A DNA stretch of 64,000 nucleotides from an uncultured Holophagales bacterium (GTDB lineage: Bacteria > Acidobacteriota > Thermoanaerobaculia > Multivoradales > UBA5704): contig CAWJQA010000018.1 in assembly GCA_963844885.1 (NCBI GenBank), positions 208,675 through 272,674 of the forward strand, written 5' to 3'. The notes beneath the pieces are model-generated. The model saw only the letters and a list, made by a program, of their open reading frames with translations. It made no database searches and had not been told where the DNA came from. Within the stretch, counting starts at the first letter, position 1; every line of letters starts with the position of its first letter. This document shows, piece by piece, positions 6,275 through 34,413 of this stretch. The position numbers and the translations under genes were made by a program.

Positions 6275-6549
6275 AGCCAGCCAGTCGAAATCTCTGGCTT
6301 GAGCTCGCTGCGCTCTGTCTGTTCCTCTTTAGCCTCGTTCTGTTCTTGCTCACAATGTTTTCCGTAGCGACCTTTTTCATGAGCGGTCTTTTGCCCGACG
6401 AGTCGTCGTCGGCGGGAGTCAAGGTGGTGGTCAGCATCGAGGAGGTGCTGGTGGCAGCTCTATCCACCCTTGTTCCCGGCCTGGCCCTGGTCGCGACGGC
6501 CTGGGGACTGCGCTCGCTCCTGGTCGACGAAAAGGAGCCCGACGCATGA
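6271..6549 (+). CDS. Small hypothetical membrane protein (about 3 TM segments)
   Basis: 92-aa ORF with a GTG start overlapping the upstream TGA. Its stop overlaps the next ATG. It has hydrophobic stretches LWLELAALCLFLFSLVLFLL and LVPGLALVATAW. Confidence 0.5.
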   Translation: MKPASRNLWLELAALCLFLFSLVLFLLTMFSVATFFMSGLLPDESSSAGVKVVVSIEEVLVAALSTLVPGLALVATAWGLRSLLVDEKEPDA

Positions 6550-8510: not shown

Positions 8511-8579
8511 CCAACTTCCCGGCTTTGGGGTCTCTATCGGGTGTCGACGCTCGTCCTGGGATGAGAGGAGGACTTTTCG

Positions 8580-14578: not shown

Positions 14579-16926
14579 CCCGTCCCGCGGCGCGCCTGCT
14601 TCTGCTTGCCGCTCTGGCCTGCCCTGCCGGAGCCTGGGCGGAGGGTCGCCACATCGCGATCGTCCTCGACACGTCGGGCTCCATGGATTCCAACGATCAG
14701 CCCCGGTACACGGTGCAGCTCTCACAGGTGATCTCCGACCTGCTGAACGACGGCGACGAGCTCAACGTGATCCGCATGAAGGACGATTCGTCCTGCTCCG
14801 CCGGCGCCTCGTCGTCCCTCGCCTTCACCCTGGACCCGGGGGACCGGCAGAGCTTCAAGCGGCGCCTGGACCAGGAGATCGCCTACGAGACGGGTACCTA
14901 TTTCGCGGCGCCGATCCGCACCGCGGCGGCCCTGCTCTCCGGTAGCCCGGACTCGCAGCGGATGCTCCTGGTAATCGCCGACTCCGGCGGCCTAGGCTCG
15001 TGCGAGGACGAGCTCACGCGGATCCTCCTGGACCTGAGGCAGAAGGGGGTCACCGTCGCGGCGATCAACCTGGGAGGCACGGCGGGCGCATTCGACAGCA
15101 ACCCGGCCTTCGCCTTCACCACGTCCGCCCTGGACGCCCAGGGCCTGATCGAAGCCGTGGCTCAGGTCTACCAGAAATTCCTCGGCGCGAAGACGGTCCA
15201 GACCGGCCGTGTGCAGGGCCCGATCGAGGTAGATGTCGCGCCATTCGTGGACGAGGCGTTCCTGGTGGTGGCCGCCGACGGTCCCCTGAGCGCCGTCGAG
15301 CCGGCGGGCGGCAACCCCGGCGCTGCGGCCGTCGACCCCGACCACCGCGGCGGCGGAAGCACCCAGGGCCTGGACGGCCGGACCCGCGCCTACCGCATCG
15401 TGCGGCTGGAGCGGCCGGCCCCGGGACGCTGGACGTTCAACGTCCCCGGCCTGTCCGCAACCGCGGGCTGGATGCTGCTTCAGGACTCGTCCGTGGGGCT
15501 GCGCCTGGTGTCGTCCCCAGACATGCCTCGCGGTATCGCTACTCCCATGGAGGTCGAGGTCTTCGACCAGAAGACCGGCAAGCGCATCACGGATCTGTCG
15601 CAACTGCCGGGCCTGAGCGTCACGCTCGACGTGGATGGGAAAAAGGTCACGTTTCAGGACGGCGGACAGGACGGCGACCGCGTACCGGGAGACGGCATCC
15701 TGACGGCCATGACCACCCTCGACCAGGCCGGCGCGCGCAAGCTTCCAGTACGCCTGGAGAGCGACCTCCTGGACCGCACGGTGGAGGTCGAGACCCGGGT
15801 TCTCGACGCGGCCTGGAGCCTCGCCGTGAAGACGCCGCCGAAGGCTACGGTGGACCATCCCGTGCTTCTTGAGGTAGAGCTGAAACCCTTCGGTGATCCG
15901 TCCCGGCTCAAACCGCCCGAGCGCATTGACGCGCTCACCGGCGGCCCGGCGGTAGGCCTGCGCGACGACGGTTCGGAGGGAGACCGCACGGCCGGAGACC
16001 GGATCTACTCGCGCCGCTGGATACCCGCGGAGGTGGGCAGCTTCAAAGTCGAGTACGCACCCATCGGCGGGAGCACCTCTCTGCGCGGCGCCGCTCCGAT
16101 CGAGGTGTTGGGCCGGCTGGACTTCGGACCCCTGCGCCCCATCCGGCTCGGGCAGGCTTGCAGTGGAGCCGAAGTGGGTGACCGCCTGGAGCTCGGCGCG
16201 GCCACCGTCCGCGGTGGCTTCGACGCGACCGTGAGCAGCTCGTTCGAGCTCGACCGGACGGCGCTGGAGATCGACCTCGGCGACGGCTGGGTGCTGCTCG
16301 GGAGCAAGCCCCTGCCGCTACGTCTGACCGAGAGCGGTCCCCGTGCCTGGCCGGTGCGGCTGCGGGTCGGCTCCTGTCCGGAAGGGAACCCGAAGGGTAG
16401 GCGGTTCGACATTGTCCTCGAAGCCGCCGGTCCGGACGGCAAGCCGCTGAAAGCCAACGTTCCGCTGGAAGTGGTCGTGATCGAGGATCCATGGCTGCGC
16501 TGCTGGTGGCCGGTGCTGGCCGCCGGAGCCGGCATCGTGCTGGCCGGCGTCCTGGTGCATGGGTTCTGGTCGCCGTCGCGCTTCTCACCCCGTCTGGGCG
16601 TGACCCTCTCGCCGGAGGAGGACTTGACCGAGGGCTTCTTCCATCCCATCCGCGCCCAGCGAGGCACGGGAAGTGGCTTCTACAGGGACGCGCGGGTGTT
16701 CATCCGCCAGGACTTCCGCCTCTCGGGCAACGCTCGTGAAGCCCTGGCGCGTCTGCGTGCCGATCACAAGCTGGTGCGGATCCAGCCGGTCCACGGCACC
16801 GCGCTCTGGCGCCAGAACGCCGAGGGAGCCTGGGAGCAGGTGCCGCCCGCCGAGACCACCGCCCGCTTCGGCGACCTCTACCGCAACGACACGGGAACGC
16901 TGTTTTTCGAGATTCGGAACGCCTGA
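14575..16926 (+). CDS. Secreted/periplasmic vWA (MIDAS) domain - beta-rich region - single TM - cytoplasmic tail
   Basis: 783 aa with an ATGA overlap to the upstream gene. The signal peptide is ..LLLLAALACPAGAWAEG. IAIVLDTSGSM is a canonical DxSGS MIDAS, followed by MLLVIADSGG. The TM segment is WWPVLAAGAGIVLAGVLV. The tail FYRDARVFIRQDFRLSGNAREALARL...GDLYRNDTGTLFFEI is paralogous to that of the 10137 gene. Confidence 0.85.
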   Translation: MTRPAARLLLLAALACPAGAWAEGRHIAIVLDTSGSMDSNDQPRYTVQLSQVISDLLNDGDELNVIRMKDDSSCSAGASSSLAFTLDPGDRQSFKRRLDQEIAYETGTYFAAPIRTAAALLSGSPDSQRMLLVIADSGGLGSCEDELTRILLDLRQKGVTVAAINLGGTAGAFDSNPAFAFTTSALDAQGLIEAVAQVYQKFLGAKTVQTGRVQGPIEVDVAPFVDEAFLVVAADGPLSAVEPAGGNPGAAAVDPDHRGGGSTQGLDGRTRAYRIVRLERPAPGRWTFNVPGLSATAGWMLLQDSSVGLRLVSSPDMPRGIATPMEVEVFDQKTGKRITDLSQLPGLSVTLDVDGKKVTFQDGGQDGDRVPGDGILTAMTTLDQAGARKLPVRLESDLLDRTVEVETRVLDAAWSLAVKTPPKATVDHPVLLEVELKPFGDPSRLKPPERIDALTGGPAVGLRDDGSEGDRTAGDRIYSRRWIPAEVGSFKVEYAPIGGSTSLRGAAPIEVLGRLDFGPLRPIRLGQACSGAEVGDRLELGAATVRGGFDATVSSSFELDRTALEIDLGDGWVLLGSKPLPLRLTESGPRAWPVRLRVGSCPEGNPKGRRFDIVLEAAGPDGKPLKANVPLEVVVIEDPWLRCWWPVLAAGAGIVLAGVLVHGFWSPSRFSPRLGVTLSPEEDLTEGFFHPIRAQRGTGSGFYRDARVFIRQDFRLSGNAREALARLRADHKLVRIQPVHGTALWRQNAEGAWEQVPPAETTARFGDLYRNDTGTLFFEIRNA

Positions 16927-16953
16927 TGCCGGCCGAAGGCCGAGGAGCTTTGC

Positions 16954-19900
16954 ATGAGTGAGAACGGAGAATACCGCAGCGGTCAGGGCACCATCATTCC
17001 CAGGCTGTTCATCGGCCTCGGGGGCGTGGGCTCGCGGATCGTCGACCGGATCGCCGGACGGACGGCCTACCTGCCCAACTGGGAGAGCCAGCTTCGCCCG
17101 CTCACCAACTTCATCTCGATCGACACCAACGAGCTCGACCAGCACAAGCTCAAGCATGTGCCGGACGGCAACCGGTTGAACATCGCCGCGTTCGACAAAG
17201 CCAAGGCCATCGAATACCTGCGGCGCTCCAAGGATCCGCAGGCTCTGCAGTGGCTGGACCGTGGATATCAACCGCGCCCGGTTTCAAGCCTGGCGCCGGC
17301 CAGATCCGGGTGGAAGCGCGCCTCGGCTTTTTCTATCACTCCCTGGAGATCCGCCAGCGCATCAAGGAGCTGATCCATGAGACGCTGCGCCCCGGCATCA
17401 CGTGGCGGCAGTCGAACCCGCCGAAGTACAACGTGTATCTGTTCTGCACGCTCGCCGGCGGCACCGGCTCCGGCAGCTTCCTCTCGGTGGCCTATCTGAT
17501 CAACGCACTGCTAGGCGAGCAGGGGTGGCAACCCCGGGTCATCGGCAACCTGCTTCTGTCCACGCTGATGCTGGACCAGGTCGGCCCCGAGCTCCACCCC
17601 GACATCCACGCCAACACCTACGCGGCGCTCAAGGAGTTGGAGCACCTCACCAAGCTCGACTACAAGCAGGTGAAGGACGAAGGCCGTGTCTCCGATCAAT
17701 TCGTCTACTGCCGGGACGAGAACAACCGGGCGGTGCAGAACGTCGCAACGCGTCCGTTCTTCCTGTCGTTCGTCTTCGACCGTCCCGCGCACCTCGGCCT
17801 GCCGAATCCCGAGACGGCCATCGCGGACGCGGCGTTTCTCCAGATCTTCACGCCGATCATCGACAACCTGGCCGGCGAGCTCGACAACTACGAGAAGAAC
17901 CTCGAGGGACTGACGCGCTTCCCCGGCGATCTCAAGAACGTAGGCCTTGGCTATACCAAGAACTTCGGAGCGTTCGGCGCCGCCGCTCTGGTGCTGCCCG
18001 GCCACGACTTCCTGGAGTACGCCGTGGCGCGCTTCGCCGCGCAGGCGATCCGCAGCCAGATCACCTTCGGCGCCGATCCGGCCAACCCCGGCGACGATCG
18101 GGCGCGCGCCCTGGCGCGGCTGGCGGTCGACTACTCGGACCCCAAATTCCTCAACATGTCGGACGAAGGGCGGGAGCGGACGATCAACCAGTCGTTCCTC
18201 TCCTCGGTGCAGGAGATGGCCCGCCAGGACGAGCGGCAGGAGCTTCTGGAGGGCTACTGGTACCGGCTGGCGGAGTCGGTCGACCAGGGCCGCAAGACCG
18301 GCGTCGACGACAAAGGCGAGGAGGTCCGCGGCGAATCGCAGATCCGCTGGGTAGAGCGCAAGCTGGAAGAGACCCGCCGCGACCTGCTCAACCGGGTGTC
18401 GATCAAGGAGAGGGCGTTCGTCTTCCACCGCGAAGGAGTGAACCAGTACGTGGAGCTGGTCAGCCGGCTGATCGAGGACATCCGGGGCGCGCGCCAGATC
18501 GTGGACGAAGGGGTGCGCGGCCTGGAGGCCGCCGCCCTCGAAGGCGAGGTCGTCTCCGAGCTGAAGCTCGATCCAATCGCCGAGCGCTACCTGGCGATCC
18601 GGCTGCTCGACCGTTGTGAGCAACAGTGGATCCCCGAGGCCCAGCAGCAGCTCGAAAAGGCCCGCGCCCGTGACATCGGCAACCCCAAGGTCCGCGAGCG
18701 GCTGGAGCGCGAGCTCTTCGAGTCGCTCCAGGAGGCGGCCTCGAAACGCGCGATCTTCAACCGTGATCAGGCGTTCCTGAGCGTCCGCGACGAGGCCCAG
18801 GAATACTTCCGCAGCGTGGCCACCGCGGCCCGCAATACCTTCGACGCGGAGATCCGGCTGCGGCAGCTCCGGTCCCTCCTGGAGTACCTGCAGCGCCGTT
18901 CGCGGCAGTACGCCCGGCTCGCCACCCGCATGGACGCTCTGGTGCAGGATCTGGAGCGCGACGCCGAACGCCTGCGCCGCGGCGAAGCCGCCGTGGTCGC
19001 TCCGCTCGCCCTGCGCGTCGAGGTCTTCGAGACGCTCGACGAGCCCCACCGCCGCATCTGGGACCGCGTCTACCTGGCGCTCTTCGTCGAGGGTGGGCGC
19101 TACATGGCCACCTTCGACCGCCAGGCGCTCGCTGAGACCATCTCCCGCGAGCTCAAACCGGTCGTACGCGGCGACGGTACCGTGACGGAAAAGACCCTGG
19201 ACCAGACGGTCAACGACCTGCGCCGCGCCCTGCGCGAGTTGGGCGCTCAGCGGCTGCGCCCGGCCATCCTCGGCGGCGACGGGCAGCCCGGGCTCGACCT
19301 CGTGCGCGGGTTGGAGCTGGAGGGCCGCTTGATCCTCCAGCCCGGCAAGCCGCCGGGCCAGGAGGTCACCGAGGACGAAATCGACGAGTACCGCCGCAAG
19401 AAGTTCCGCGCCCTCGCCCAGGTGGCCGGTGTGCTGGCCCGGGTCAGCTCCACCGAGACCAAGGCCCTGGACGACGGCGTGAAGACGAACCGCACCCGCC
19501 AGCTCATCGTGGGCATCGGCGCCGGCGGCGGCACCGCCTCCCAGCGTTTCGTCGACGAGCTCAACGCCGTACTGGCGACGAGCGGCCGGCAGGTCAAGGA
19601 GGACGAGTGGCACGATCCGCGGATCGCCATCGTCCACGACGTGGAGATGCCGATCCCGCTCTACTACATAGAGCCGGTGACCTCCGAGATCGAGGACGCC
19701 TACCTCGCCCTCGCCGCGGACGAGCGCCGCGCCTACAACCTCCACACGGACTACAACTGGGAACGGTCGCTGCCCAATCTGAACCCCCGCCGTTCGGAAA
19801 TCACCGTGGGCTGGTCGCTGCGCATGCTCGCCGAGGGCCTCCTCACCCACGTCGTCGGCCGGCAGGACGGCTTCTGGGTCTGGCAGATCGACGGCAGCGG

Positions 19901-20246
19901 CGAGGTCGAGCGGCTCGGACGAAACCTGTCGAGCACCCTCTACCGCCTGGGCGAGATCCACCGCATCGAGGATCTCCAGAAGAGGTTGGAGGCGCGGCTC
20001 CGCGAGGCGAAGTCGCTGGTGGACTTCGCGCGGGAGGAGCAGCGGCGCAAGGAGATCCGCGAGCTCGCTGACTCGCTCCTCGCCGCCATGGGCCGGCGCG
20101 AACTGCACGGAGAGATGGCCCGCGAGGACAGTCTGGACCGCCCGATCCTGCGCGCCCTGCTGCAGGAGCTCGACCGTCCGGGCGACGACAGGACTTCGAT
20201 GGCCTCCCCCGATGAACGGCTCTACGAAGGGTTGCGGCTCCCGTGA
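16954..20246 (+). CDS. Giant tubulin/FtsZ-superfamily GTPase (Tubulin_2-like N-domain plus ~700-aa helical/coiled-coil extension); one frame break near 17272 as sequenced
   Basis: Track ORF 16954..17373 gives RLFIGLGGVGSRIVDRI (a GxGxxG nucleotide loop). Track ORF 17250..20246 gives GAGQIRVEARLGF and FCTLAGGTGSGSFLSV, the tubulin signature GGTGSG at 17457-17474. The two frames join at ..WLDRGYQP/APGFKPGAGQ.. if one nt is restored in caacc-gcg (17269-17276). Confidence 0.8.
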
Positions 20247-22738
20247 CGCCCGACACCTCGGTCTCGCCTCAGCGCGCCACGATCCTCGTCGGCTACGGCG
20301 AGCTCGGCCGCGACGTGCTTCGCCGCCTCCTGGCCAGCACCGCACTGCGGGGTGTGCTGGTCTGGGAGGAGCCTCACGGCGGCGCGGACGCCGCCGAGCG
20401 CTCGCTCCAGGATCTGGCCCTCCTCTGGGTGCGCGACCGTGTCGGCGCCGCAGGGCCGGAGCCGGAGGACGACACGCACGGGGAAAGCTCGTTCGAGATG
20501 ATGCGCGACCTTTACCGGCAGATCCAGCAGGTGCCCGAAGCCGGCAGCCCGGAAACCGACTTCGCCGAGGCCCTGTCCGCGGCGGCGGAGAAGCTGCTGT
20601 CGGCTTCGGTGCGGGCGTCGCGCCGCGGCGTCCTGCCGCTCGGCCTGGACGTGGTCGTGATCGCCCGACCCACCGGCCCCGAGGTGATCGGCAGCCTCGA
20701 CCGCATGCTCGTCCGCGGCATGGAGCGGCTGGCGAACAACGCCAATCTGGAGCGCGCGGTGCAGGGATCCGAAGCCCTGAGCTTCCTCAAGATCCTGGAC
20801 TTCGAGAACTACTGGGACCGCGGCGACCGCGGGCGCAGGGTCCGCGAAGCGGTCCACAACTCGGTGGAGCAGTGGTGGAAGCGGCGGATCGACGGCAAGC
20901 CCGCCTTCAGCCGCTTCTATCTCGTGGACGGGCGCACCGCGGACGGCATCCGCGACACCTCGAATCGCATGGACGAAATCAGCCTCTTTCTCGAGCTTCT
21001 GCTCTTCGAGGGCCAGCGTAGCGGCACGCTCCAAAAGCTCTATCAGTCGCAAGGCGCCATCGAGTCGCCGCTGGGGACGTTCGGCATCCGCCTCATGGAG
21101 CGCAGCGCCGGCCTGTTGAGCCGCCTGGCTGCCGCGCGCTTCGGCGTCGGCTGGCTCGCCTACCTGGCGCAGGACGGCGCCGGCACCGGCGGCCGGCCGG
21201 CGGAGCACCTGCGCACACGGCTCGCACCCTATCAGCCAGCCGAGCTGGACCGGCTGCTCGGCCGCGACGAGCTGCGCGCCCTGGTGGATGCCGAGCTGGC
21301 AGCCCTGGAGGCGGAGCTCGTGGCCATCCCGTTCGACCTTCCGGACTGGCCGGAGCGCGTCCGCGCCAGTCACGGTAAAGCCTTGCGCCGTCTGGAAGCC
21401 CGCCTCTCCGAGCGCGTTCGGATCCGCATGGCCGAAATCGGCCGCGAGCGCCTGGCCGGGCTCGCGGAAGATCTCCACGCCGGCATCGAAGATGACCTTC
21501 ACGATTCGCGCGACCCAGTGCCCTTGGGCACCGTCCTCGCCGAGGTCGAGCGCACGCTCGACGATCTCGCGGGCAGAGAGGACGACTCGCCGCAGGCCCC
21601 TTCCGCGGACGCCCTGTTCGCCCGGGTCGCCTCCGTCCACTCCAGCTATCTCCGGTTCTCCTACGACCGCGTGAGCCCCGAGCATCTGCGCCGGTGGTGG
21701 CCGGTCCTCGGCATCGCCCTGTCCGCCGTGCTGACCCCGCTGGTCAGCGAGCTCCTGGCGGACGTTCAGAAACCCGACCCCTTGAAGCTCCTCCAGACCC
21801 GGGCGTGGGATCTTCTGCAATGGATCGCGAAGCCGCCGGTCGTCGGGATTCTCCTGTTCCTTGCCGCCTGGGGGCTCGGCGCCTGGCTTCTGCAACGGTC
21901 GGTCGCGGCGCGCATCGACCGCGCGCGGCGCTTCTTCAGCGACCCGCAGCGCGGTCGGTTCGTGGAGCGGCTGCGCCAGGGCCTGGAGCCGGGCGGCGCG
22001 CTACGCAGCCCTGTCGACCAAGCCGTCGACCGCATGGTGCGGGACATGTCCATCAGCGTCCGCGGAGAGGTTCGGCGCGAGCTGGCGCGGGCGGCGTCCG
22101 TGCTGCGGGAGCGCCGCCGTGAGCTTCTCTGGCTGCGCGAGCAGCTCCGCGAGCTCCTCCGGCTCCATGGCCTGTCGGCCGAGGAGCGCCAAAGCGACCT
22201 CGAACGCGTCCTGCGCAACAATACCGGCGTCACCGGCATCCGTTACTCTCTGGAGCGCGCCGAGGACTTTGAGCGCATGCTACGGAGCAACCCTCCCAAC
22301 TCCGCGCGCTTCCGGTCGACCCAGGGCGCTCAGTCGCCCTTCAATGGCTGGGACCGCCGCTACAGCCGCGCGTTCCTCCACCCGATCACCTTCCTCGACA
22401 GACTGAGCCGCATCTACAAGGACCCGTTCCAGCAGGAGCTGGCGGTGCCCGGCACCGGCCCCGAGCAGCAGCGGCGAGCCGACGAGCTCCTGGAGTTCCT
22501 GCGCCGCCAGGGCTCTTTCGACCTGGCCTTCCAGTGGAAGGCAGAGGCGGGCGTCTCTCCCGACCGCCGCTTCTGCCTCCTGCCCACCATATGGCGCCAG
22601 CTTCCTGGTGTCTTGCCGACGCTCTCCGGCCTGCGAGTAAGCGAGGAGTCAATCCTCCCGGGGAGTGACGTAGCGCGCGCCTACCTGCTGCGGGTACAGA
22701 CCGGCGTCGAGCCGGAATGCCTTCTCAAGAAACGGTGA
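20243..22738 (+). CDS. Large hypothetical protein, possibly a degenerate tubulin-like partner, with two central TM segments
   Basis: 831 aa. The GTG start overlaps the upstream TGA. ATILVGYGELGRDVLRRL parallels FIGLGGVGSRIVDRI of the upstream protein. VVVIARPTGPEVIGSL (20663-20683) sits where GGTGSG would be. Hydrophobic segments are WWPVLGIALSAVLTPLV and VVGILLFLAAWGLGAWLL. The functional call is by-eye and weak. Confidence 0.55.
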   Translation: MTPDTSVSPQRATILVGYGELGRDVLRRLLASTALRGVLVWEEPHGGADAAERSLQDLALLWVRDRVGAAGPEPEDDTHGESSFEMMRDLYRQIQQVPEAGSPETDFAEALSAAAEKLLSASVRASRRGVLPLGLDVVVIARPTGPEVIGSLDRMLVRGMERLANNANLERAVQGSEALSFLKILDFENYWDRGDRGRRVREAVHNSVEQWWKRRIDGKPAFSRFYLVDGRTADGIRDTSNRMDEISLFLELLLFEGQRSGTLQKLYQSQGAIESPLGTFGIRLMERSAGLLSRLAAARFGVGWLAYLAQDGAGTGGRPAEHLRTRLAPYQPAELDRLLGRDELRALVDAELAALEAELVAIPFDLPDWPERVRASHGKALRRLEARLSERVRIRMAEIGRERLAGLAEDLHAGIEDDLHDSRDPVPLGTVLAEVERTLDDLAGREDDSPQAPSADALFARVASVHSSYLRFSYDRVSPEHLRRWWPVLGIALSAVLTPLVSELLADVQKPDPLKLLQTRAWDLLQWIAKPPVVGILLFLAAWGLGAWLLQRSVAARIDRARRFFSDPQRGRFVERLRQGLEPGGALRSPVDQAVDRMVRDMSISVRGEVRRELARAASVLRERRRELLWLREQLRELLRLHGLSAEERQSDLERVLRNNTGVTGIRYSLERAEDFERMLRSNPPNSARFRSTQGAQSPFNGWDRRYSRAFLHPITFLDRLSRIYKDPFQQELAVPGTGPEQQRRADELLEFLRRQGSFDLAFQWKAEAGVSPDRRFCLLPTIWRQLPGVLPTLSGLRVSEESILPGSDVARAYLLRVQTGVEPECLLKKR

Positions 22739-22740
22739 CC

Positions 22741-25641
22741 ATGGACATGCTCGACCAGATCCTGCTCCCCTTCGGCTTTCTCGCGGCTGCCGCAGCCGTG
22801 GCATACGGCGCGGACCGCGCCGCGCTCGCCCGCCGCAGGGACGGCGACCGGGGCGATTTCTGGGCTCGGATCGTCCAGTGGCTCTGCCTGGGCCTCGGAG
22901 TCCCCCTGCTCCTCTCGGGCTTCCTGCAGACGCTCTTTCCGCGGTACTGGCGCCTCGGCCGGCACCTCCAGCTCGATCTGACAGGCGCCTTCGGCTGGAC
23001 GCTGGAAACTTGCTACCGTCTGGCGCTCTTCCTGCCCTTCGCGGCTTGGCTCGCATTGCTGGCCTTGGGCCTCGCGCGCAAGCCGGGGGACCGCGACGAG
23101 GCGCGTTGGCTCGCGGGAGGGATCGGCTTCGGCGGCTCGCGGCTCTGGGTCCTCCTGTGCGCGGCCCCCTTCGCCATCCTCCTGGTGCTGACGCCCGACC
23201 GTCTCGGAGGCGGCGACGGCGCCTACCCCGGCGCCTCCTGGGCGACGGCGGCGGTGCTCCTGCTCTCTCTGGCCGGCGTCGCCCTGAGCGCAGGACGGCC
23301 GGAAGCGGCGCCGTTGGCCCGTCCCGCCGGCTCGTCCCAAGCCACGGCCCCCCCGTCTCTCCAGCCCTGGCCGCAGGCGCTCGCTACGCACGGCGTGAGC
23401 GTCCGCGGAGTAACTTCGTGGTCCGCCAGCGGCCCCGCCCGCGCGCCCCGGCCGGTCGCCGGCAGCGACCTGGCCGAGCGGCTCCGCCACCTGGGAGCGG
23501 GCGAGGTGGCGCCGGAGTTGGTCGAAGCTGTGGGCGCTCTCCTGGAGAACGGGCCAAACGAGGGCGAGCACGGCCCGGCCCGGATCGTCTTCGCCCCCGA
23601 CCACTGCGGCCAGATCGAAACCGTGGCTGTGGCCGCCGCCATGCTGGAGCAGCGGTTCCACGCCACGACCCTCGTGGTCACCGCCCGCGACGCCGAGGCC
23701 CTGGCGGACCAGTTCCGCCTCTGGCTGCCGGCACCCGGCGCCGTCGGCGTCTTCGCCGGCACGGGCGAGCCTCCCTGGGGCGCGGTGGTGTGGATCGTCG
23801 AAGCCCAGATCCTCTCTGACCGGCTGCTCCCGATCCTCAAGGACCCCCTCCAGGCGCGGCGATTCGGCTTCATCGTCTGGTGGCACCTGGAGGCCTTCAG
23901 CGGCGTCTTCGCGGCCAATCTGTGGGCGATCTCGCGGCGGCTCCACCGCCTCCTCCAGGCGCTGGGGCGGCGCGACGTCCGCACGCTGGCCCTGGTCCGT
24001 AGCGCCCCGCACGGCGCGGCCCAGCTCGCCTCGTTCGTGCGGCGCCTCCTTCCGCACTCCTTTCCGGGCGGCGCGGAGGTCCACGTCAGCCAGCGATTCC
24101 CACGCCAGGTCTACCTTCACGCGCTGGAGTCCCACCAGGGCTACTTCGCCCGGGGGGAGGGACGGGATGTCCAGGAGCGCCACCGGCACCTCCCGCTGAT
24201 TGCCGCCCGGGTCTCCGCCGATGAGGGCTGGCCGACGGTCCTGGAGGTCCCGGCCGACGTGGCCAGGCCCGACATCGAAGCCGTTCTTCAGCTCGCGTCC
24301 GGAGGGTCGGTCCTCCGCGACCGCCTGGAGACCGACCCGAGCCGCGCCGGAGCGCGTCTCCTCGGTGTCGAGGCCGGCGATATCCTGTCGCTGCCGGAGA
24401 TCGTCAGCCAGGGTGGACGCTGCGCTCCCGCGGGCCTGCCGCATCACGTGGGGCTCTCGCTGCCGCCGAACCCGTACGCGGCCCACCTCGTCGACCGAAT
24501 GGCGGAAGCCGACGCCGCCTTCCCGACCTCCCGCCGCCTGGTCGCCGCCGAGGCGCTCTCCACTGTGGTCCGCCGGCACCTCCTCCTGGCCCTCAACGAG
24601 CTGCCCGACACCCGCAGCGGGCTGCTCAAGGACTTCCTCTGGAACGACGAGGTCATCAGAAGCACGCTGGACGAGATCGCCCGCGACGGCAAGCTCGTCC
24701 GCCGCGAGGTGCGCTTCCTCACCGAGGGCGGACGCCTGCGGATCGATCACGAGTACAGCAGCCAGCGCCCGCCCAACGACGAGCAGCGCCCGCTCGACAC
24801 GGTAGGTTCCTGGCTGGTTGACGTCCGCGAGCTGGCCGGCGGCTACGACGGCGGCGGCGTGCGTCTGCGCGTCGATCCCGAGCGGCTGACCATCCAGGCC
24901 TACCCGAACCGCGTGTTCCTCCAGGACGGCCGGCGCTACCGCGTGCGCGACTGGAGCTCGATCGAGTCCGTGCTCCGCAGCCGCTCGATCGCCTGCGACC
25001 GCGAGGACGTCCACAGTCTCACCTGGCGCATCCGCAACCCTCTCGTCTTCGGCATCGAGCCGTCGCGGGCGCCGAGCGGCGTGGGCCGTACCGGCAAGCT
25101 CCTCACCTGCTTCCCGGCCCGCCTCACCTACGAGGAGGAGGTGGTGGGAGCCCTGCGGTTGGCGCCGGACCTGGGCACCGGCCTGCCGCCGCGCACCGAG
25201 ACACTGCGCCTCGCGCGGCCGATCACCCAGAGCTTTTCCACCCGTGCCCTGATTCTGCGCTTCCCGGATGAAGAGGAGCACGTCGCTCTCGCGTCGCTCG
25301 CCCAAGCTCTGCGCCACGTCCTCCCCGTCCACCTCGGCGTCGACGAGGACGCGCTCGAGGTCGTGCCGCTAACCGGTGAGATCATCAGCGACCTGCCCAC
25401 CTACGGTCTCGCCGTGGTCGACCTCTACCCCGGTGGCATCGGTCTCGTGGACGAGATCGGCGACGACAGCCCCTTCCTGCTCCAACTCCTCGAATGGACC
25501 GACGGCTGGCTCAAGGCTTGTCCTTGCCAGAGCGACGCCGGCTGCGACCGCTGCCTGCGCTCGCCGGCCGCGCTGGCGGCCAACATCGATCAACCCCCAC
25601 TGCGGAAGGCGGCCCTCGGCCTCCTCCGTCAAGTCCTTTGA
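22741..25641 (+). CDS. Five-TM N-terminal domain fused to a helicase-like core with degenerate Walker A, and a C-terminal DUF1998 (MrfA/YprA-type Zn-binding) domain
   Basis: ATG 22741 lies 2 nt after the upstream stop (alternatives: GTG 22735, ATG 22717). Five hydrophobic segments lie in the first ~190 aa. ARIVFAPDHCGQIETVAV lacks GK[ST], and GFIVWWHLEAFSG sits at the DExH position. The C-terminus VVDLYPGGIGLVDE...CPCQSDAGCDRCL...NIDQPPLRKAA (Cys cluster 25519-25554) matches the DUF1998 pattern. Confidence 0.7.
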   Translation: MDMLDQILLPFGFLAAAAAVAYGADRAALARRRDGDRGDFWARIVQWLCLGLGVPLLLSGFLQTLFPRYWRLGRHLQLDLTGAFGWTLETCYRLALFLPFAAWLALLALGLARKPGDRDEARWLAGGIGFGGSRLWVLLCAAPFAILLVLTPDRLGGGDGAYPGASWATAAVLLLSLAGVALSAGRPEAAPLARPAGSSQATAPPSLQPWPQALATHGVSVRGVTSWSASGPARAPRPVAGSDLAERLRHLGAGEVAPELVEAVGALLENGPNEGEHGPARIVFAPDHCGQIETVAVAAAMLEQRFHATTLVVTARDAEALADQFRLWLPAPGAVGVFAGTGEPPWGAVVWIVEAQILSDRLLPILKDPLQARRFGFIVWWHLEAFSGVFAANLWAISRRLHRLLQALGRRDVRTLALVRSAPHGAAQLASFVRRLLPHSFPGGAEVHVSQRFPRQVYLHALESHQGYFARGEGRDVQERHRHLPLIAARVSADEGWPTVLEVPADVARPDIEAVLQLASGGSVLRDRLETDPSRAGARLLGVEAGDILSLPEIVSQGGRCAPAGLPHHVGLSLPPNPYAAHLVDRMAEADAAFPTSRRLVAAEALSTVVRRHLLLALNELPDTRSGLLKDFLWNDEVIRSTLDEIARDGKLVRREVRFLTEGGRLRIDHEYSSQRPPNDEQRPLDTVGSWLVDVRELAGGYDGGGVRLRVDPERLTIQAYPNRVFLQDGRRYRVRDWSSIESVLRSRSIACDREDVHSLTWRIRNPLVFGIEPSRAPSGVGRTGKLLTCFPARLTYEEEVVGALRLAPDLGTGLPPRTETLRLARPITQSFSTRALILRFPDEEEHVALASLAQALRHVLPVHLGVDEDALEVVPLTGEIISDLPTYGLAVVDLYPGGIGLVDEIGDDSPFLLQLLEWTDGWLKACPCQSDAGCDRCLRSPAALAANIDQPPLRKAALGLLRQVL

Positions 25642-25653
25642 GGACCGGACATC

Positions 25654-26889
25654 ATGTTCAGACCCAAGATCCACGGCGAGCTCGAAACCATCCACGAGCG
25701 CCTGCGCGGCTGGGAGACCTCGGTCCCGGCGCGCGCCCGTCGCTTCCACGCTCTGCGCGGAAGCCTGGAGGAGCAGGCCCGCAAGCTCCTGGGTCAGTTC
25801 GTGGTCTGGAGCGGGAACGAGACCCTCCAGCGGCTCAAGGACCGGACCGACCGGCTCAGCATGGTTGCCGAGCCGCTGGCGACCCTGATTCGGGACGCCG
25901 AACGCCTCGAACAGGAGATCAAGCTCCTCGCCCAGCGTGCCCGGGACGCCGGCAGTCCCGAGGTCGCTCGTGGCCTCGAGCAGCGCTGCCGCGACTGGTC
26001 CATCCTCATCGGCAGCCTGGGTACGGACTGCGACCGGGAGCCGGAGCTGCAGCGCGACCAGCTCCGCCTGCGCGGCACCGAGGAGGTGGTCCGCCTCCAC
26101 GACCAGGCGGTTTCCTGGCTCCAGGAGGCCCGGCGGGTGCTCTCCGACCTGGGCTCGGACCTCAAGGCCGCGCCCCTGGCCGCGGCCCTCCCGGACTTCG
26201 ACCTGCGTCTCCTGCGCGACGGCGCTACTCTGGAATGGGTTCAGGAGCTCAAAATGCTGGTCCAGCCGCTCAAGGATCTGGCCCGCCGCATCCAGGACCC
26301 TCCCCAGGAGCTCAAGACCGTGTCGCTGCTCCTCACCGACCTCCGCGGCTGGTCGCGGCAACTCAAGGAGAAGGAGGACCGCGTCGAGCAGCTCAAGCAG
26401 CGGCACCACTTCTACGCGGCGGACTGGAGCCCGGCCGGCCTCGACGACCTCGCCCGCGATGCCGAAACACTCCGCGACGAGCTAGTGGCCCAAGCCCGCG
26501 ATTTGCGCCGGCGAAAGCTCGAAGAGCTCAAGGACCGGGTCGAGGAGCTCATCCAGGCCTGCGGCCCACAGCCCGAGCTGGACGAGCGCATGTCCGAGGT
26601 CGAGACGCTGTCGTTCGACCGCTATCAACTTTTCCGCGAGTGGGCGGCCCGCTTCAAGCGTGTGGAAGACTACTTTCAGGCCATCGCCAACACCCATGAA
26701 GGTGCGCTCGAACGGCGCCTGTCCGAGCTCGTGGACGGGCTCCGCCAGGGCCTGGGAGCGCTCCGTTCCCAACCCCTTTCCGATCAGGTCCGCGGCGAGG
26801 CCGACGCTTTGAGCACGACCTGCGCGAGCTCGCCCAGATTTCCGGAGCCGAGCCGATGCTGCGCGCTCTCGGCCGGAGCGGCGAGATGA
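25654..26889 (+). CDS. Coiled-coil protein (hypothetical)
   Basis: 411 aa, rich in E/R/L/Q with long heptad-like stretches. The last ~25 aa (STTCASSPRFPEPSRCCALSAGAAR) look out of frame. The next gene's frame is already open from 26700, so the two ORFs may be one ~770-aa protein. Confidence 0.6.
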   Translation: MFRPKIHGELETIHERLRGWETSVPARARRFHALRGSLEEQARKLLGQFVVWSGNETLQRLKDRTDRLSMVAEPLATLIRDAERLEQEIKLLAQRARDAGSPEVARGLEQRCRDWSILIGSLGTDCDREPELQRDQLRLRGTEEVVRLHDQAVSWLQEARRVLSDLGSDLKAAPLAAALPDFDLRLLRDGATLEWVQELKMLVQPLKDLARRIQDPPQELKTVSLLLTDLRGWSRQLKEKEDRVEQLKQRHHFYAADWSPAGLDDLARDAETLRDELVAQARDLRRRKLEELKDRVEELIQACGPQPELDERMSEVETLSFDRYQLFREWAARFKRVEDYFQAIANTHEGALERRLSELVDGLRQGLGALRSQPLSDQVRGEADALSTTCASSPRFPEPSRCCALSAGAAR

Positions 26890-27962
26890 AGAGGACGCTC
26901 GACCGGCTCACGCGCCAGGCTCGGGAGGACTCCGAGGAGCTCTCGCGGCAGCAGGAAGCGCTGCGGGAAGCCTACCGGGATCTCCGTCTTCGGGCGAGTG
27001 AGGCCGGCCACACCCTTCCGGACCTCGCGGAGCGCATCGAGGATCTGTCGCGCGGCAAGGACGAGCCTTCGCTGGAGAGGGCGCGGCAACTCGCCGCCGA
27101 CCTTGCGGCCGAGCTGGACCGGCAGCGGCAGGAGGTGCTCCGGTGGTGCCGTTCGCTGCTCGACCGGCGGATGGCCGAAATCCGCGCCACCGCCGAGGCG
27201 CTGCGCCGCACCGGCACGCCCTTCACTCTTCCGGAAATCCCACTCCTGCAAGAAGACGCCAGCCCCGGCGACGCGATCCTGGCTCTGAAGCGCGCCGAAG
27301 AGGTCGGGGCCCTCCTTCTCGCGGCCGTGGAGACGGCGCTTCACTCCTGCGAAGAGCGGCGGCTCCAGGCCCAGGCCGCTCTCCAGCAGCTCCGTCCGGA
27401 GTCGCTCGGACCCGACGAGCGGGAGACCGTAGCTCAGCTTCTCCAGGAGCTGGACAAGGGATCCTGGGCCGACTCCGAAAACCTTGTCGAGCGCTTCGAG
27501 CTCCTGTCCCAGGTGGTCGAGATGTGTGACCTCCTCTTTCAGCGGCTGAACGAGGAAGAGCGCTCCGCCCGTTCCCGGCGCGAAGCCCTCCGCCGCCGGC
27601 TCCAACGCCACACCGAGAACCAGATGCGGCGTTTCTCTCCCGACCTCACCGACCGCGTCGCGGACCTGGTTTACGGCATCCCCGACGAGCCGGCCTCCTG
27701 GCGGGCTGTCCAGGAGCAGCTCGGCGTGGCGGAGCTCCTGCTCGCCCGCATCGAAACGCACGCGGCGCGCCTCGCGGCCGAAGAGCTCGACCGCGCCGCC
27801 GAAACCCTCCGCGGCCGGCGCGGCCGGTCCGCCACGCCCGAAGTCCGAACCCTTCTGGCCGATCTGGAGCGCTACTCCGACGAGGAGCTGCCGCCGGTGA
27901 TCCTGCGGACGCGCATTGTGAACGCGGCCCGGAAAGCCGCCCAAGGAGACCCCCGCCCATGA
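26886..27962 (+). CDS. Coiled-coil protein (hypothetical); possibly continuous with the preceding ORF
   Basis: ATG 26886 overlaps the upstream TGA (ATGA). 358 aa of E/R/L/A-rich helical sequence. Its stop overlaps the next ATG. Confidence 0.6.
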   Translation: MKRTLDRLTRQAREDSEELSRQQEALREAYRDLRLRASEAGHTLPDLAERIEDLSRGKDEPSLERARQLAADLAAELDRQRQEVLRWCRSLLDRRMAEIRATAEALRRTGTPFTLPEIPLLQEDASPGDAILALKRAEEVGALLLAAVETALHSCEERRLQAQAALQQLRPESLGPDERETVAQLLQELDKGSWADSENLVERFELLSQVVEMCDLLFQRLNEEERSARSRREALRRRLQRHTENQMRRFSPDLTDRVADLVYGIPDEPASWRAVQEQLGVAELLLARIETHAARLAAEELDRAAETLRGRRGRSATPEVRTLLADLERYSDEELPPVILRTRIVNAARKAAQGDPRP

Positions 27963-29641
27963 CACCCGGCAGCCCGCTCCCGGCCTGGCCCGCACTCGAC
28001 GCGGGCGACCATCCTTTTCCTCAACGTCTCGGCTACGAGCGCGCGGTCTGGGGCAAAGTCCACGCCTCTCCCGGAGACTATCGATGGATCGCGGCCTCGC
28101 CGTCCTTCGCCCCCGCCCTCCAGCAGATCGAGCGCGAATTGCAGCTCGGCAGCGAGGACGTGCCAGAGCGGGCCACCCACTGGCGCAACACCGGCGAGCA
28201 CTGCCTCGCCATGGTCTGCTACCCCAGCCGCGCCGCCGACGCCGCCGGCCGTTCCAACTTCCTGGAAAAGCAGATCCTTGCCTGGAGGCGCCCCGCCGAG
28301 GTTCCGGCGGTGCTCGGAGCCCTCCTCCTCTTGCCGCGGATCGCGCAGGCGGATGACGACATCTGGTGGGACAAGCCCGCGCAGAGCCGCTGGTCGGAGG
28401 ACGACACCCTTTCCATCCCTCCGGAGGACCATCCGCCCGTCCCCGTTTCACCGGATACGCTCGCCGAAGCCGTCGCCCGGGGGACGGCCGAGCTGCGTGC
28501 AGCCCTCCACGAAGACTCCCTCACCGATCTTTACGCCCACATCCTGGCCGGTCATCGCGCCGTGCCCCTGGCCGGCCTCGCCGCGCCGCTCGGCCCTGAA
28601 GCCGTGGCCGCCCTCCTGCTGCCGCTCCCGCGCGCCCTCGCCGACGGCTACTCCGTCGCCGGCTGGCTCCCTTCGCGGCGGTTGCCCGACCTGGCCGAGC
28701 TGCAGCGGTGCTGGGGCGTCGTGCTCGGAGGCGCCACTCTGCCGCCGCCACCGCCCGTGTCGCCGTCTCCCGAACAGCGCCGCCAGGCGCAGACGCTGGC
28801 CCAGGCCATCCTGGCCAACGACCCGGCCATCCTCACCGGCGCGCCGACCCCTGCCGCCGCCCCGGTGGCTGTTTCCGGAGGCCCTTCCCCGATCCGCCTC
28901 GCCATGTGGGGCCCCTCTTCCGCCGGCAAGACGGCGCTCCTCGCCAAGCTCTACCTGGAAGACGACGAAGAGATCGACTGGGAGGTCTTCCCGACCGCGA
29001 CCTCGCTCCAATTCATCCAGGACATGCGCGCCCACATGCGGACGAGCAACGCCTTCCCGCCGGCCACTACCGGCTCCGTCGAACAGATCGAATATCAGTT
29101 CCGCCACCGCTTGGCCGGAACCGAGGCCTCCCTCCGCCTGGAAGACCGGGCCGGCAGCGAGTCCGAGAAACTCACCGACGCGATCCGCGTGCAGCTAGGC
29201 GAGGCGCACGGGCTCGTCCTCGTCTTCGATCCCCTGGCCGAAGGGTCGTCTCTGGAAAGCCAGGTCTGGCGTACCCTCGAGCACGTCCACGTGGCGAGCG
29301 GCCGGCGCGTCCACAAAGACAGCCGCCCCATCGCCGTCTGTGTCTCCAAGGCGGACGTCCTCATCGAGACGATCGACGACCTGAGGAGCGCGCGGGAAGA
29401 CCCCGACGGCTTCGTCCGCCGGCGTGATCGTATGGGCCTGGTCAAGGCTCTGGACCGGTTCTGCAGCAACTACCGGCTATTTCCCGTCTCCGCCGCCGGC
29501 ATCCGGGTGCGCCACGGTGTGATCGAGCCCGTGGTCTTCTACGATGAAGGCCTGAGCCCCCGCCTCTGTCCCGGAGGCCGTCCTCTCAACGTCAAGGCGC
29601 CTTTCGCCTGGCTTCTGGAACAAGTGACGAGTCGATCGTGA
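27959..29641 (+). CDS. Ras-like (TRAFAC-class) P-loop GTPase with a ~310-aa unknown N-terminal domain
   Basis: 560 aa. G1 is AMWGPSSAGKTALL (28910-28933), G3 is LEDRAGSE, G4 is CVSKADV and G5 is FPVSAAG. The N-domain (ERAVWGKVHASPGDYRWIAAS...) is repeated in the next locus. Confidence 0.75.
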   Translation: MTPGSPLPAWPALDAGDHPFPQRLGYERAVWGKVHASPGDYRWIAASPSFAPALQQIERELQLGSEDVPERATHWRNTGEHCLAMVCYPSRAADAAGRSNFLEKQILAWRRPAEVPAVLGALLLLPRIAQADDDIWWDKPAQSRWSEDDTLSIPPEDHPPVPVSPDTLAEAVARGTAELRAALHEDSLTDLYAHILAGHRAVPLAGLAAPLGPEAVAALLLPLPRALADGYSVAGWLPSRRLPDLAELQRCWGVVLGGATLPPPPPVSPSPEQRRQAQTLAQAILANDPAILTGAPTPAAAPVAVSGGPSPIRLAMWGPSSAGKTALLAKLYLEDDEEIDWEVFPTATSLQFIQDMRAHMRTSNAFPPATTGSVEQIEYQFRHRLAGTEASLRLEDRAGSESEKLTDAIRVQLGEAHGLVLVFDPLAEGSSLESQVWRTLEHVHVASGRRVHKDSRPIAVCVSKADVLIETIDDLRSAREDPDGFVRRRDRMGLVKALDRFCSNYRLFPVSAAGIRVRHGVIEPVVFYDEGLSPRLCPGGRPLNVKAPFAWLLEQVTSRS

Positions 29642-31111
29642 AAAATCTTTCGCAATGGCCTTCCCTCGCCGCCGGCACAGGAGCCGGCTGGCCCGACAAG
29701 CTTCATTACTCCCGCGCCGTCTGGGGAAAAGTCCACGGCGCCCGCTCGGACTATCGCTGGATCGCCCTCAGCGCCGGTTTAGTCCCCGAGCGGGACCTTC
29801 ACGAGCAGCTCAATGTGGGCGTCGAGGATGAACCGGAGTCGACATTGCTCTGGCGGAACCTCAGCGGACGCTGCCATGCCGTGAGCTGTTACTCCGAGCC
29901 GGGCCACGGATGTCTCGGGTCGAGGAAATTTCCTGGAAAAGCAGGTGCTTTCCTGGGACCGAAGTGACCTCCCGGCAGCCCTGGGAGCCCTGCTTCTCCT
30001 TCCGCACGCCGCCGGCCTCACCGACAGCCATCTGGTGGAGCCGCTACGAAGGCCAGCCCTGGACGGAGGAGGGCTTCTCCTTGCCGATCGAGGCTTCGGA
30101 CCATGAGCCGCTCCCCGTCAATCAAGAGACCTCGCCTCGACCATGAAAATGGGACTTGCCGAGATCCGGAGCAACTTCGGGATCGAGCCTCTCCAGACCC
30201 TTTATTCCGCTCTTCTTGCCGGCAGCAAACCAGCCTTTCTGACTGGCGCGCCCAGCCTCTGTCGGCCGCAGCGCTGGCGGCGCTCCTCCTTCCTCTCCCG
30301 CGCGAGCATGCCGACAGCCTTTCTCTGGCGGCCTGGGTCCCGTCACGCCGCGTCTCGGAGAAACAGGCAAAGCTCTGGGATGTCATCGTCCTTCCTCCCG
30401 GACGGGCTGATCTGGGGGTGAAGCCGGCCGTGGTGGATCGTCATTGCCGGGACGAGGGACGGCGTCTGGCTGAGTACTCCTTGGCCTGGGCTCTGAGCCT
30501 CTGGCGGGTCTGCCGCCGCAGTCCTTCGGGCCGGTGGAGGAACTCCCTTCGCCACCGAGAAAGCCGGAGCCGACCGCGGTGCCTTCCGGGCGGCCAGTCC
30601 CGGGACACACGATCGAGCTGAGGCCCCAGCTGCCCGGGGCGGTCGAAGCTTTGAAAAATCTCCACGCTTTCGCCATGCGCGACGGATCGCCGCTGGCTCG
30701 ATGCCGATGCGCTGGCGGGTTGAAGCCCGGCCAGATCCAGCTCCGGGATTCTCCGATCCCGGCTGGCTCCAAACTCTCCGATAAGCAGCGCCCCACCTGG
30801 GTGGACAAACACAGTGGGCCGTCAAGCTCGACCTGCTGCGCTGCGCCGCCCTGGTCCTCCACCCCCATCCTAACGCCGCCATGCCGAAGACCGTAAGATT
30901 CCGCCGCTCCATTTCGCCTATCGCTGTCCCGACCAATCTCGACCTTTTGGGCAACCTCGGACCGACGAAGCTCCAAGAGGCTCTGGAACAGAGTCTGAAC
31001 CTAGGGCGCAATCCGCGGACAAAAAGAATGAGGGAGCTTGCTCGTGCGCTGGAGAAACCGAGACGAAACGGCGGGATCTGGATATCAGGAGATGGTCGAG
31101 CGACACCTTGA
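29638..31111 (+). pseudogene. Decayed paralogue of the preceding gene (N-domain recognisable, P-loop lost), needing at least 4 frame changes
   Basis: GTG 29638 overlaps the upstream TGA. SRAVWGKVHGARSDYRWIALS..LLWRNLSGRCHAVSCY parallels ERAVWGKVHASPGDYRWIAAS..THWRNTGEHCLAMVCY. Homology continues in other frames: GNFLEKQVLSW..ALGALLLLP at ~29920-30000, and AALAALLLPLPREHADSLSLAAWVPSRR at ~30265-30350. At the expected P-loop position (~30612) the sequence reads IELRPQLPGAVEAL. The last open frame ends at 31111. Confidence 0.55.
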
Positions 31112-31114
31112 AAT

Positions 31115-32216
31115 CTACTTCGGCGTGAGCTCGACCACGTACCCCGGAGCGGCACCGCGGGCTATCACGCCCTCGCGCGCCTTCAAAACGGCGGCTGCCG
31201 CGTCCGGAACAAAAGAGGACGACTCGAAAGCGAGCGAAGGAAGGGAAGCAAGGCGGGCGTACTGGTTGCGAACGCCCTGGAGCAGATCGCGCCGGAACTC
31301 GATCGCGGCGAGGCCGAGGTCCATCGGCGGATCGTGATAGATCGTCACCAGCTCGATGCCCGCGCGATGCAAGGCCATGACCTCCATATCTACATCTAGG
31401 GCCCTGGCGCTCACGTCGGCACCCTTGGGCAGCGGATGTTGGATGGATTGGCCGGGAGAGTCGCCCCAGATCACAACCACCTTGCGCGCATCGCCATTCC
31501 AACGCAGCCGCTGGCAAGCGTGCAGCGCGTCCGCCAACGCATCCACGAAATCCCCGCCTGGCGTGGGAGGGATCGCCGTCAGCGCTGATCGCAGTCGAGC
31601 CGCGTCCAGCGGCCGGAACCCTCGCTCGTCCTCCCTGGGATGCAGCTCGTAGATGGGCGCAAGATCCGGAGCCACAGCCCCATCGGGCATGCGGTCTCCA
31701 AAAGCGAGGACAGCGAAACGGGCATCGGAAGCACCTTCGGCGCAGGTTTCGGCGAACCGGACCAGCCGATCGATCTGCTCTTTCCAGGCGTCGCCGTCCT
31801 TGAGCAGCAGGTCTGCCGCAAGCCCTTTCTCATGCTTGAACCGGCGGGTCGTGGCGTCCACGACCAGAGACCAGGTCGAGGCTCTCCGTGTGCGAAACGG
31901 TCCCCAGCAGCGGCAACAAATCGTGACGGCCTTCCACCGGTAGAGTGAGCACGCTCCGCCCGGGGCTGGTGACCTGGAGGCCACCGCTCTCCCCGGTCTC
32001 CACCTCAATCGACACCGACTCTCCGCTTTCTGCCTGAACCTCAGCACGAAGCACGACCTCGCCGCCTTGAGTAAACACCAGGTGCAACCCAGAGGCACCG
32101 GGCAGGCACGCCAGACGAAGCGAGCACGTCGAGCCGGCGCCGTTCAGTGGGAGCGGGACTTCCTCTGGAGAGCCCTTCGGCAGAGAGACGACGCGTAGGG
32201 TGAAGGTGGTCATCAA
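31115..32216 (-). CDS. Beta-sandwich N-domain plus vWA-like domain with degenerate MIDAS; one frame break near 31862
   Basis: Track ORFs 31830..32216 (MMTTFTLRVVSLPKG...TESLDLV) and 31115..32098 (..SLVVDATTRRFK...VVVIWGDSPG...) join as ..LDLVSLVVDATT.. if one nt is restored in tct-tgg. A beta-1 strand followed by DxTxR, and later an hhhhGD motif, fit a vWA fold. Its ATG overlaps the stop of the upstream gene. Confidence 0.55.
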
Positions 32217-34402: not shown

Positions 34403-34413
34403 TTTCGAATCGA

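Follow-up and report, generated by a model that had tools for sequence, protein, structure and literature searches.

DO-GTPase systems consist of a DO-GTPase and a GAP1 protein, which is encoded downstream and sometimes fused to it, and they include tubulin and vWA themes (Kaur, Burroughs, Iyer & Aravind 2020, eLife, PMC7159879). Two paralogous GTPases, the origin of the family name, occur in 38% of these systems and are not obligatory (PMC7159879). Operons of FtsZl1, vWA and GTPase genes have also been described, with membrane remodelling as the proposed function (Makarova & Koonin 2010, Biol Direct 5:33, PMC2875224). The two adjacent genes considered here lie in a stretch of 64 000 nucleotides (the window) from an uncultured Holophagales bacterium (GenBank assembly GCA_963844885.1, contig CAWJQA010000018.1, positions 208 675 to 272 674 of the forward strand). 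Gene 1 (27959..29641, + strand) is an intact open reading frame (ORF) of 560 amino acids that joins an N-terminal module, the N-module, to a Ras-like GTPase domain. Gene 2 (29638..31111, + strand) carries a second N-module and is broken, as assembled, by one-base insertions and deletions. A preliminary description, made from the sequence alone, had taken the second gene for a decayed GTPase paralogue that had lost its P-loop.

Longin-DENN modules occur in the Rab35 guanine nucleotide exchange factors (GEFs) DENND1A and DENND1B, in the GTPase-activating protein (GAP) complexes FLCN-FNIP and C9orf72-SMCR8, and in TagF, a regulator of the type VI secretion system (T6SS). To our knowledge, TagF is not known to act on a GTPase. 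A conserved tubulin-like (FtsZl1)/vWA operon ends with genes 1 and 2. The two very probably make up a switch module of the DO-GTPase/GAP1 type, and the apparent decay of gene 2 is most likely an assembly artefact.

The GTPase fusion and its partner

The GTPase domain of gene 1 (residues ~308-560; 28880..29641, + strand) is defined by Pfam family DO-GTPase2 (PF19993) and by structural matches from Foldseek and VIA. The Pfam match covers residues 315-473 (E = 8.5e-7, 29.3 bits) and passes the gathering cut-off of 27. Most gene 1 homologues carry PF19993 in precomputed annotation. The characteristic motifs follow one another on the plus strand: G1 GPSSAGKT (28910-28933, residues 318-325), Walker B/G3 LEDRAG (29138-29155, residues 394-399), G4 SKAD (29345-29356, residues 463-466) and G5 VSA (29486-29494, residues 510-512). 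Their residues are invariant or near-invariant in an alignment of 116 homologues. The Walker-B glutamate E395 is conserved in at least 90% of these sequences, and GxxxxGKT, LEDRAG and SKAD are likewise kept. Protein searches recovered at least 120 full-length clusters of gene 1 homologues, at 39-83% identity. The AlphaFold2 model of gene 1 has a mean pLDDT of 90, and its GTPase fold resembles Ras, Rab, Arl and Miro GTPases, including Arl13B (Foldseek E = 1e-6; VIA Z 14-15.5). Such GTPase-domain matches dominate fold searches with the entire model. DO-GTPases are recognized by a TRAFAC/Ras-like domain in which G1 and G4 are intact and the Walker-B glutamate is conserved, and gene 1 has all of these features. 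Gene 1 is an ordinary member of this described bacterial family. The Ras-like GTPase with an N-domain and G1, G3, G4 and G5 motifs that the preliminary description had proposed is thus borne out by a match above the Pfam cut-off and by motif conservation. A pair of paralogous DO-GTPases is not seen here: the operon has one DO-GTPase only, and gene 2 has no GTPase domain.

The gene 2 locus (G000:C18:238300-239800 in contig numbering, ~29.6-31.1 kb of the window) repeats the N-domain far above chance (tblastn E = 1e-30). This repetition had been noticed earlier, across at least four frame changes; eight are robust and up to 12 may be present. Once corrected for frame, the locus aligns along its full length with an intact orthologue, P0197, and the N-domain similarity is significant. 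A profile of intact orthologues matches the locus over its full length in alternating frames (E = 1.8e-33, 7e-26 and 9e-22), ending at the stop at 31111 where the preliminary description had placed it. A whole-genome search recovers the locus as three frame pieces. The GTPase part of gene 1 (protein P0001, residues 310-560) has no tblastn match in the locus.

The intact orthologues establish what gene 2 encodes. A protein of ~490-520 amino acids is encoded directly 3' of an N-module plus GTPase gene in 19 genome loci, and it follows a GTPase without an N-module in nine further loci and in genome G038. The gene is intact in all 28 related genome loci, none of which needs a frame shift, and protein searches add ~90 intact metagenome clusters. 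Orthologues P0197 and P0181 lie on the same contigs as the nearest relatives of gene 1 (83% and 81% identity). No Walker A motif or P-loop was found in any member examined (18 aligned, 102 collected). The model of P0197 (pLDDT 89.9) comprises a longin-like part, an alpha/beta middle part and a helical C-domain, with helices only after residue 316. In the window, the N-module paralogue extends to ~30500 (+ strand) and is followed by a variable linker and by the helical C-domain (~30560-31111, + strand; motifs RRWLD and QWxVKxDLLRxAAL). Nearly all family-invariant residues are still present. The locus is an orthologue of a conserved non-GTPase partner composed of an N-module and a helical C-domain. 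Gene 2 has therefore lost no P-loop, as the partner family never carries one. The string LPGAVEAL (~30630-30653), earlier assigned to the P-loop position, falls within the linker/C-domain region of a family that lacks a GTPase domain in every intact member.

The stop codon of gene 1 and the start codon of gene 2 overlap in the tetranucleotide GTGA (29638..29641, + strand), and in relatives the start of gene 2 is also only a few bases from the end of gene 1. This spacing suggests translational coupling of gene 2 to gene 1.

Frame breaks in gene 2

A frameshift-aware alignment of gene 2 with P0197 runs over the full length, with 306 of 476 residues identical and no stop on the path. Eight breaks between 29893 and 30811 (+ strand) are robust, being identical with two independent guides, P0181 and P0197. 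An extra base is placed near 29893, at 30026-30029 and at 30678-30681; a missing base (or two extra) is placed near 30126, 30248, 30472-30476, 30709-30716 and 30810. Further possible breaks lie at 30896, 30919 and 31037-31046 (+ strand), and the total may reach 12. Each lesion is one extra or one missing base, in contexts that are neither homopolymeric nor slippery. Among intact pairs, gene 1 identity of 80% accompanies gene 2 identity of 62-64%, and 67-69% accompanies 40-45%. The corresponding values for the window are 83/81% with 62/58%, and 70-71% with 42-43%. Gene 2 shows no excess divergence, because these identities equal those of intact pairs at matching gene 1 distance. The features by which a pseudogene would be recognized (nonsense codons, larger indels, excess divergence and lesions beyond those of essential genes) were not found in gene 2.

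Lesions of the same kind interrupt essential genes elsewhere in the assembly. The rpoB and rpoC genes are cut into at least 15 frame pieces. They are single ORFs of 1435 and 1392 amino acids in a same-genus genome, and single ORFs in genomes G005 and G012 (same genus and family). A DNA alignment of the 8.5-kb rpoBC region (G000:C7:17400-26000) contains 30 one-base insertions and two one-base deletions. Another patch, 4 kb upstream of the window (C18:202900-204800), has 15 insertions and three deletions in 1.9 kb relative to another same-genus genome. A codon-position hidden Markov model (HMM), which follows a stepwise +1 frame drift through rpoBC, identifies ~30 patches on the 820-kb contig C18 (at least 44 kb, 5%) and 24 on C7. 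The model called gene 2 'non-coding' and could not count its breaks, because the frame segments are too short. Patches are kilobase-sized, consist mostly of insertions and lie outside homopolymers. The dnaE gene is free of breaks, and the assembly errors are therefore patchy. In the window, the convergent gene next to gene 2 (31115-32216, - strand) is one ORF of ~366 amino acids in loci L014 and L016, and here its N-terminal 116 residues are out of frame. Its break at ~31870 implies that the indel patch crosses the gene boundary.

The frame breaks of gene 2 are very probably assembly errors, and the real gene is probably intact; clustered breaks in this assembly are not readable as gene decay, since the patches hit even rpoB and rpoC. 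Several observations weigh against this conclusion and would suit a genuine, very recent pseudogene, in which a burst of single-base indels had struck gene 2 and spared the GTPase fusion. The 8-12 breaks fall within 1.47 kb, and gene 1 and 17 kb of upstream operon are clean; the lesions are thus locally concentrated. The insertion to deletion ratio is ~3:5 for the robust breaks and 6:6 for all, compared with 85:22 in three verified error patches, so that gene 2 is richer in deletions (Fisher P 0.02-0.03). In the N-module tree, the gene 2 copy has a terminal branch of 0.64, against 0.17-0.46 in its kin, to which mistranslation near the frame breaks contributes. Natural variants in which the GTPase works with one N-module copy also exist, and N-module copy number thus varies among operons. 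A pseudogene is nevertheless unlikely. The corrected path is free of nonsense codons, its indels never exceed one base, its amino-acid divergence is not raised, and nearly all invariant residues are retained. Lesions of matching kind and density affect rpoB and rpoC, the patch continues into the convergent neighbour, and gene 2 is intact in 28 of 28 related loci.

The tandem pair of the preliminary description, an active GTPase followed by an inactive copy that decayed and lost its P-loop, is very improbable. It would agree with the paralogy of the two N-domains, and pairs of GTPases are a recurring feature in DO-GTPase systems (PMC7159879). However, the intact orthologues (28 loci, ~90 clusters) refute it, as they have the helical C-domain in the GTPase's place; Walker A is absent throughout the family, the orthologue model contains only helices past residue 316, and residues 310-560 of P0001 are without a match in the locus. 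Decay is made unlikely by the lesions themselves, which are one-base indels only, with no nonsense codon and normal divergence, and by the 32 similar indels in rpoB/rpoC. The theme of active/inactive pairs is inapplicable, because gene 2 is neither a GTPase paralogue nor, most likely, decayed. Biological recoding, by programmed frameshifting or phase variation, would give a full-length product and is compatible with a homologous reading that spans all the breaks. It is scarcely credible, since at least eight shifts in both directions would be needed at unrelated, non-slippery and non-homopolymeric sites, slippery heptamers are absent, no relative requires a shift, and rpoB/rpoC show the same pattern. 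Programmed frameshifting in particular was ruled out by the non-slippery contexts and by the shifts in both directions. With assembly error as the favoured explanation, the notion of a decayed GTPase without a P-loop dissolves, and frame-break clusters in this assembly should not be read as decay. The locus still offers a clear case of a DO-GTPase switch whose partner module is duplicated, within an experimentally untouched tubulin-like/vWA operon.

Fold, kinship and proposed action of the N-module

The N-module of gene 1 (residues 1-~295; 27959..28843, + strand) is delimited by the secondary structure of the model and by invariant columns, and has no Pfam match even at E 10. Its conserved motifs are WPAL, VWGKVH, DYRWIA, SRAxDAxGRxxFLEKQ and LLLPLPR. 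Neither the N-module nor gene 2 found a match in Pfam or NCBIfam scans. The preliminary description called the domain novel. This holds in so far as it lies outside Pfam, but the domain is shared by a compact family of ~267 clusters, and it probably represents a divergent form of GAP1-N2/M.

The models of both proteins have a longin-like part with the order beta-beta-alpha-beta-beta-beta-alpha, followed by an alpha/beta part, which fits a longin domain plus DENN. The model of P0197 was used for the fold search of the N-module, with two aligners. Foldseek placed TagF, folliculin and the Rab-GEF domains of DENND1A/1B first (E = 2e-3 to 1e-2, probability 0.95-0.99). VIA-align, run against all PDB representatives, gave TagF the top rank (Z 7.8 over 237 residues), just ahead of DENND1A (Z 7.7 over 243 residues); DENND1B (Z 6.8, 218 residues) and DENND10 (Z 5.9, 234 residues) were also found. 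The next matches include ~25 longin proteins (Z 4-6.8), among them a Lokiarchaeota Roadblock-Longin protein, GATOR1, FLCN/FNIP, SEA, TRAPP, VAMP7, Sec22 and Ykt6. A Z score below 8 can reflect a common arrangement. On these models the N-terminal part is assigned the longin fold, and the middle part is likely to be a DENN core, a distinction made because the Z scores are moderate.

A kinship to GAP1 is suggested by several lines of comparison. In a language-model search, the ten best named Atlas clusters near the N-module all carry GAP1-N2/GAP1-M (0.94-0.95). Aligning the N-module by hhalign (A4 versus A5) with a Pfam-recognizable GAP1 from another part of this contig, together with its homologues, gives 188 collinear columns (P = 0.012) at low probability; alignment to a single GAP1 sequence was uninformative. 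A local GAP1 set could not be assembled by way of GAP1-N2 (PF20013), which matched none of 151 genomes in the phylum at E = 1e-5. Gene organization also corresponds: the partner has three globular domains and comes directly after the GTPase gene at 28 loci, 19 of which also have an N-module fused to the GTPase. The N-module is probably a divergent GAP1 (N2+M) module of DO-GTPase/GAP1 systems.

A number of results speak against this assignment and against the DENN component. Pfam GAP1-N1, N2 and M match neither the N-module of gene 1 (E up to 10) nor 18 gene 2 proteins (E up to 1), and a true GAP1 protein elsewhere in the genome does match Pfam GAP1 (E = 1e-4). The HMMER profile of the N-module picks out 267 clusters as a family with sharp bounds, from which no tail extends towards GAP1. 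The similarity to DENN and TagF is only moderate (Z < 8). The FNIII family, a trait of GAP1-N2 systems, was not found among the scanned operon proteins at E up to 0.01, a search that divergent repeats may escape.

A bolder interpretation is possible, though doubtful. The N-module would be a true bacterial longin-DENN-type regulator, the whole GAP1 family would be homologous to TagF and DENN, and the fused and partner copies would act together as a GEF/GAP heterodimer, a platform for a Ras-like GTPase in control of a membrane machine with tubulin-like and vWA proteins. If true, bacteria would possess a counterpart of FLCN-FNIP or C9orf72-SMCR8, which would bear on the origin of DENN-type regulators.

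Neither a link between GAP1 and longin, DENN or TagF nor the present fold prediction was found in the literature searched, PMC7159879 and PMC2875224 included. The predicted longin plus DENN/TagF-like fold offers a concrete idea of how DO-GTPases may be regulated and hints at the structural identity of GAP1 proteins.

The N-module tree separates gene 1 copies from gene 2 copies, the branching within the two halves is mirrored, and both copies of the window group with loci L011 and L014. These mirrored clades argue for an old duplication and not a recent tandem copy; as judged from the tree, the two N-modules derive from an ancient duplication. A separate observation concerns locus L019 (Candidatus Methylumidiphilus), where the N-modules at 6001-6834 and 7677-8519 are mutual closest relatives (support 100/100, branches 0.05/0.10). 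Such closeness suggests that the gene 1 and gene 2 copies there underwent gene conversion recently.

A general mechanism for the switch can be proposed. (i) Gene 1 joins a putatively regulatory module of ~295 residues to an intact Ras-like DO-GTPase; the module is predicted to consist of a longin domain and, after it, an alpha/beta domain resembling DENN/TagF. (ii) The two paralogous longin-type modules of genes 1 and 2 would pair, in the manner of FLCN-FNIP, C9orf72-SMCR8 or MglB dimers. (iii) Serving as an exchange-factor or GAP platform, this pair might determine which nucleotide state the fused GTPase adopts. (iv) The GTPase would then decide when the tubulin-like/vWA membrane complex assembles or fires. 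(v) The C-domain of gene 2 may provide a link to other components. The loop SRAxDAxGRxxFLEKQ, between the last two longin strands, is an obvious candidate for the surface involved. The heterodimer and the GEF or GAP activity of the N-modules are postulated purely by analogy with longin-type platforms.

The island and its place among known systems

The upstream operon genes (10137..27962, + strand), identified by Pfam and synteny, are vWA-like, vWA, Tubulin_2/FtsZl1, membrane partner, MZB/dead-helicase and coiled-coil G/H genes. Pfam matches in the operon include Tubulin_2 (E = 2.2e-32), VWA_2 (E = 5e-8) and DO-GTPase2. Synteny holds gene by gene with G038, a related genome of the same taxonomic order, and with at least 20 loci. 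A scan of species genomes found 30 loci in Thermoanaerobaculia, other Acidobacteriota and Gammaproteobacteria (Chromatiaceae, Competibacteraceae, Methylococcaceae). The operon is absent from same-genus genomes (0/10), which therefore supply no close genomic comparator. The coiled-coil ORFs G and H (25654-26889 and 26856-27962, + strand) form one ORF of ~770 amino acids in 12 of 13 related loci. This implies an extra frame break of the window near 26.7-26.9 kb, probably another assembly indel.

Most related loci (L009-L018, L027-L029) preserve the synteny between the minus-strand array at 31115-36712 and the plus-strand operon, and the two convergent operons stay together as a single island. 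Within this array, a 729-amino acid ORF (32213-34402, - strand) matches two frames, of ~230 and ~450 amino acids, in at least eight related loci. Either a window-specific fusion, possibly made by an indel, or two genes in relatives would explain this. Beyond the array lies a 388-amino acid protein (36918-38084, - strand) with GGKSVGKS, DGAG and TQAD motifs and no Pfam match, which by these motifs is likely to be a P-loop GTPase. No relationship to the gene 1 family was detected by hhalign or profile, and the suggestion that one GTPase family is used twice in the island is not supported.

Two other features of contig C18 were recorded outside the window. A second GTPase-associated system (G000:C18:375341-377572; L051:7342-9573) has a 743-amino acid protein that matches Pfam GAP1-N2 (E = 1.3e-4) and GAP1-M (E = 3e-4) weakly; P-loop-like and TPR proteins follow. 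An element of ~55-60 nucleotides (G000:C18:~202603-202670; L040:1104-1170) has copies, 92-98% identical, at dozens of sites across four same-genus genomes, and it resembles a dispersed repeat of the repetitive extragenic palindromic (REP) or miniature inverted-repeat transposable element (MITE) type.

Comparison with longin-DENN modules rests on the predicted fold of the N-module, which aligns over 218-243 residues with TagF and DENND1A/B; the ~25 longin matches that come next belong to GTPase regulators. The N-module is linked to a Ras-like GTPase both genetically and physically, and its two paralogous copies recall the eukaryotic heterodimers. The similarity is structural only (Z 6.8-7.8, 8-9% identity). 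The MglA/MglB pair is another instance of a bacterial small Ras-like GTPase whose regulator, a dimeric longin/roadblock-type GAP platform, is encoded beside it. MglB, however, is one small Roadblock domain, whereas the module here has ~290 amino acids, includes an additional DENN-like domain and forms part of the GTPase protein.

The operon agrees with the described FtsZl1/vWA operons (PMC2875224) in its Tubulin_2 protein (E = 2e-32), in several vWA proteins, in a 'diverged P-loop GTPase' and in other genes that are mostly uncharacterized. The N-module and the partner gene are undescribed in that paper. With the DO-GTPase/GAP1 systems (PMC7159879) it shares a GTPase that passes DO-GTPase2 and has the Walker-B glutamate, a multi-domain partner directly downstream and partly fused, and tubulin-like and vWA genes in the same operon. 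The N-region of the partner is nearest to GAP1-N2/GAP1-M by language model, with a weak collinear profile match. In contrast to those systems, there is no Pfam GAP1-N1/N2/M match, the GTPase lacks zinc ribbons, and no FNIII-repeat protein characteristic of GAP1-N2 systems was seen among the operon genes scanned. The N-module occurs twice, as an N-terminal GTPase fusion and as a partner copy. The tubulin theme of PMC7159879 is one of Firmicutes and Actinobacteria, whereas the hosts here are Acidobacteriota (Thermoanaerobaculia) and Gammaproteobacteria. Taken with these differences, the pair of gene 1 and gene 2 fits both published descriptions as a divergent member.

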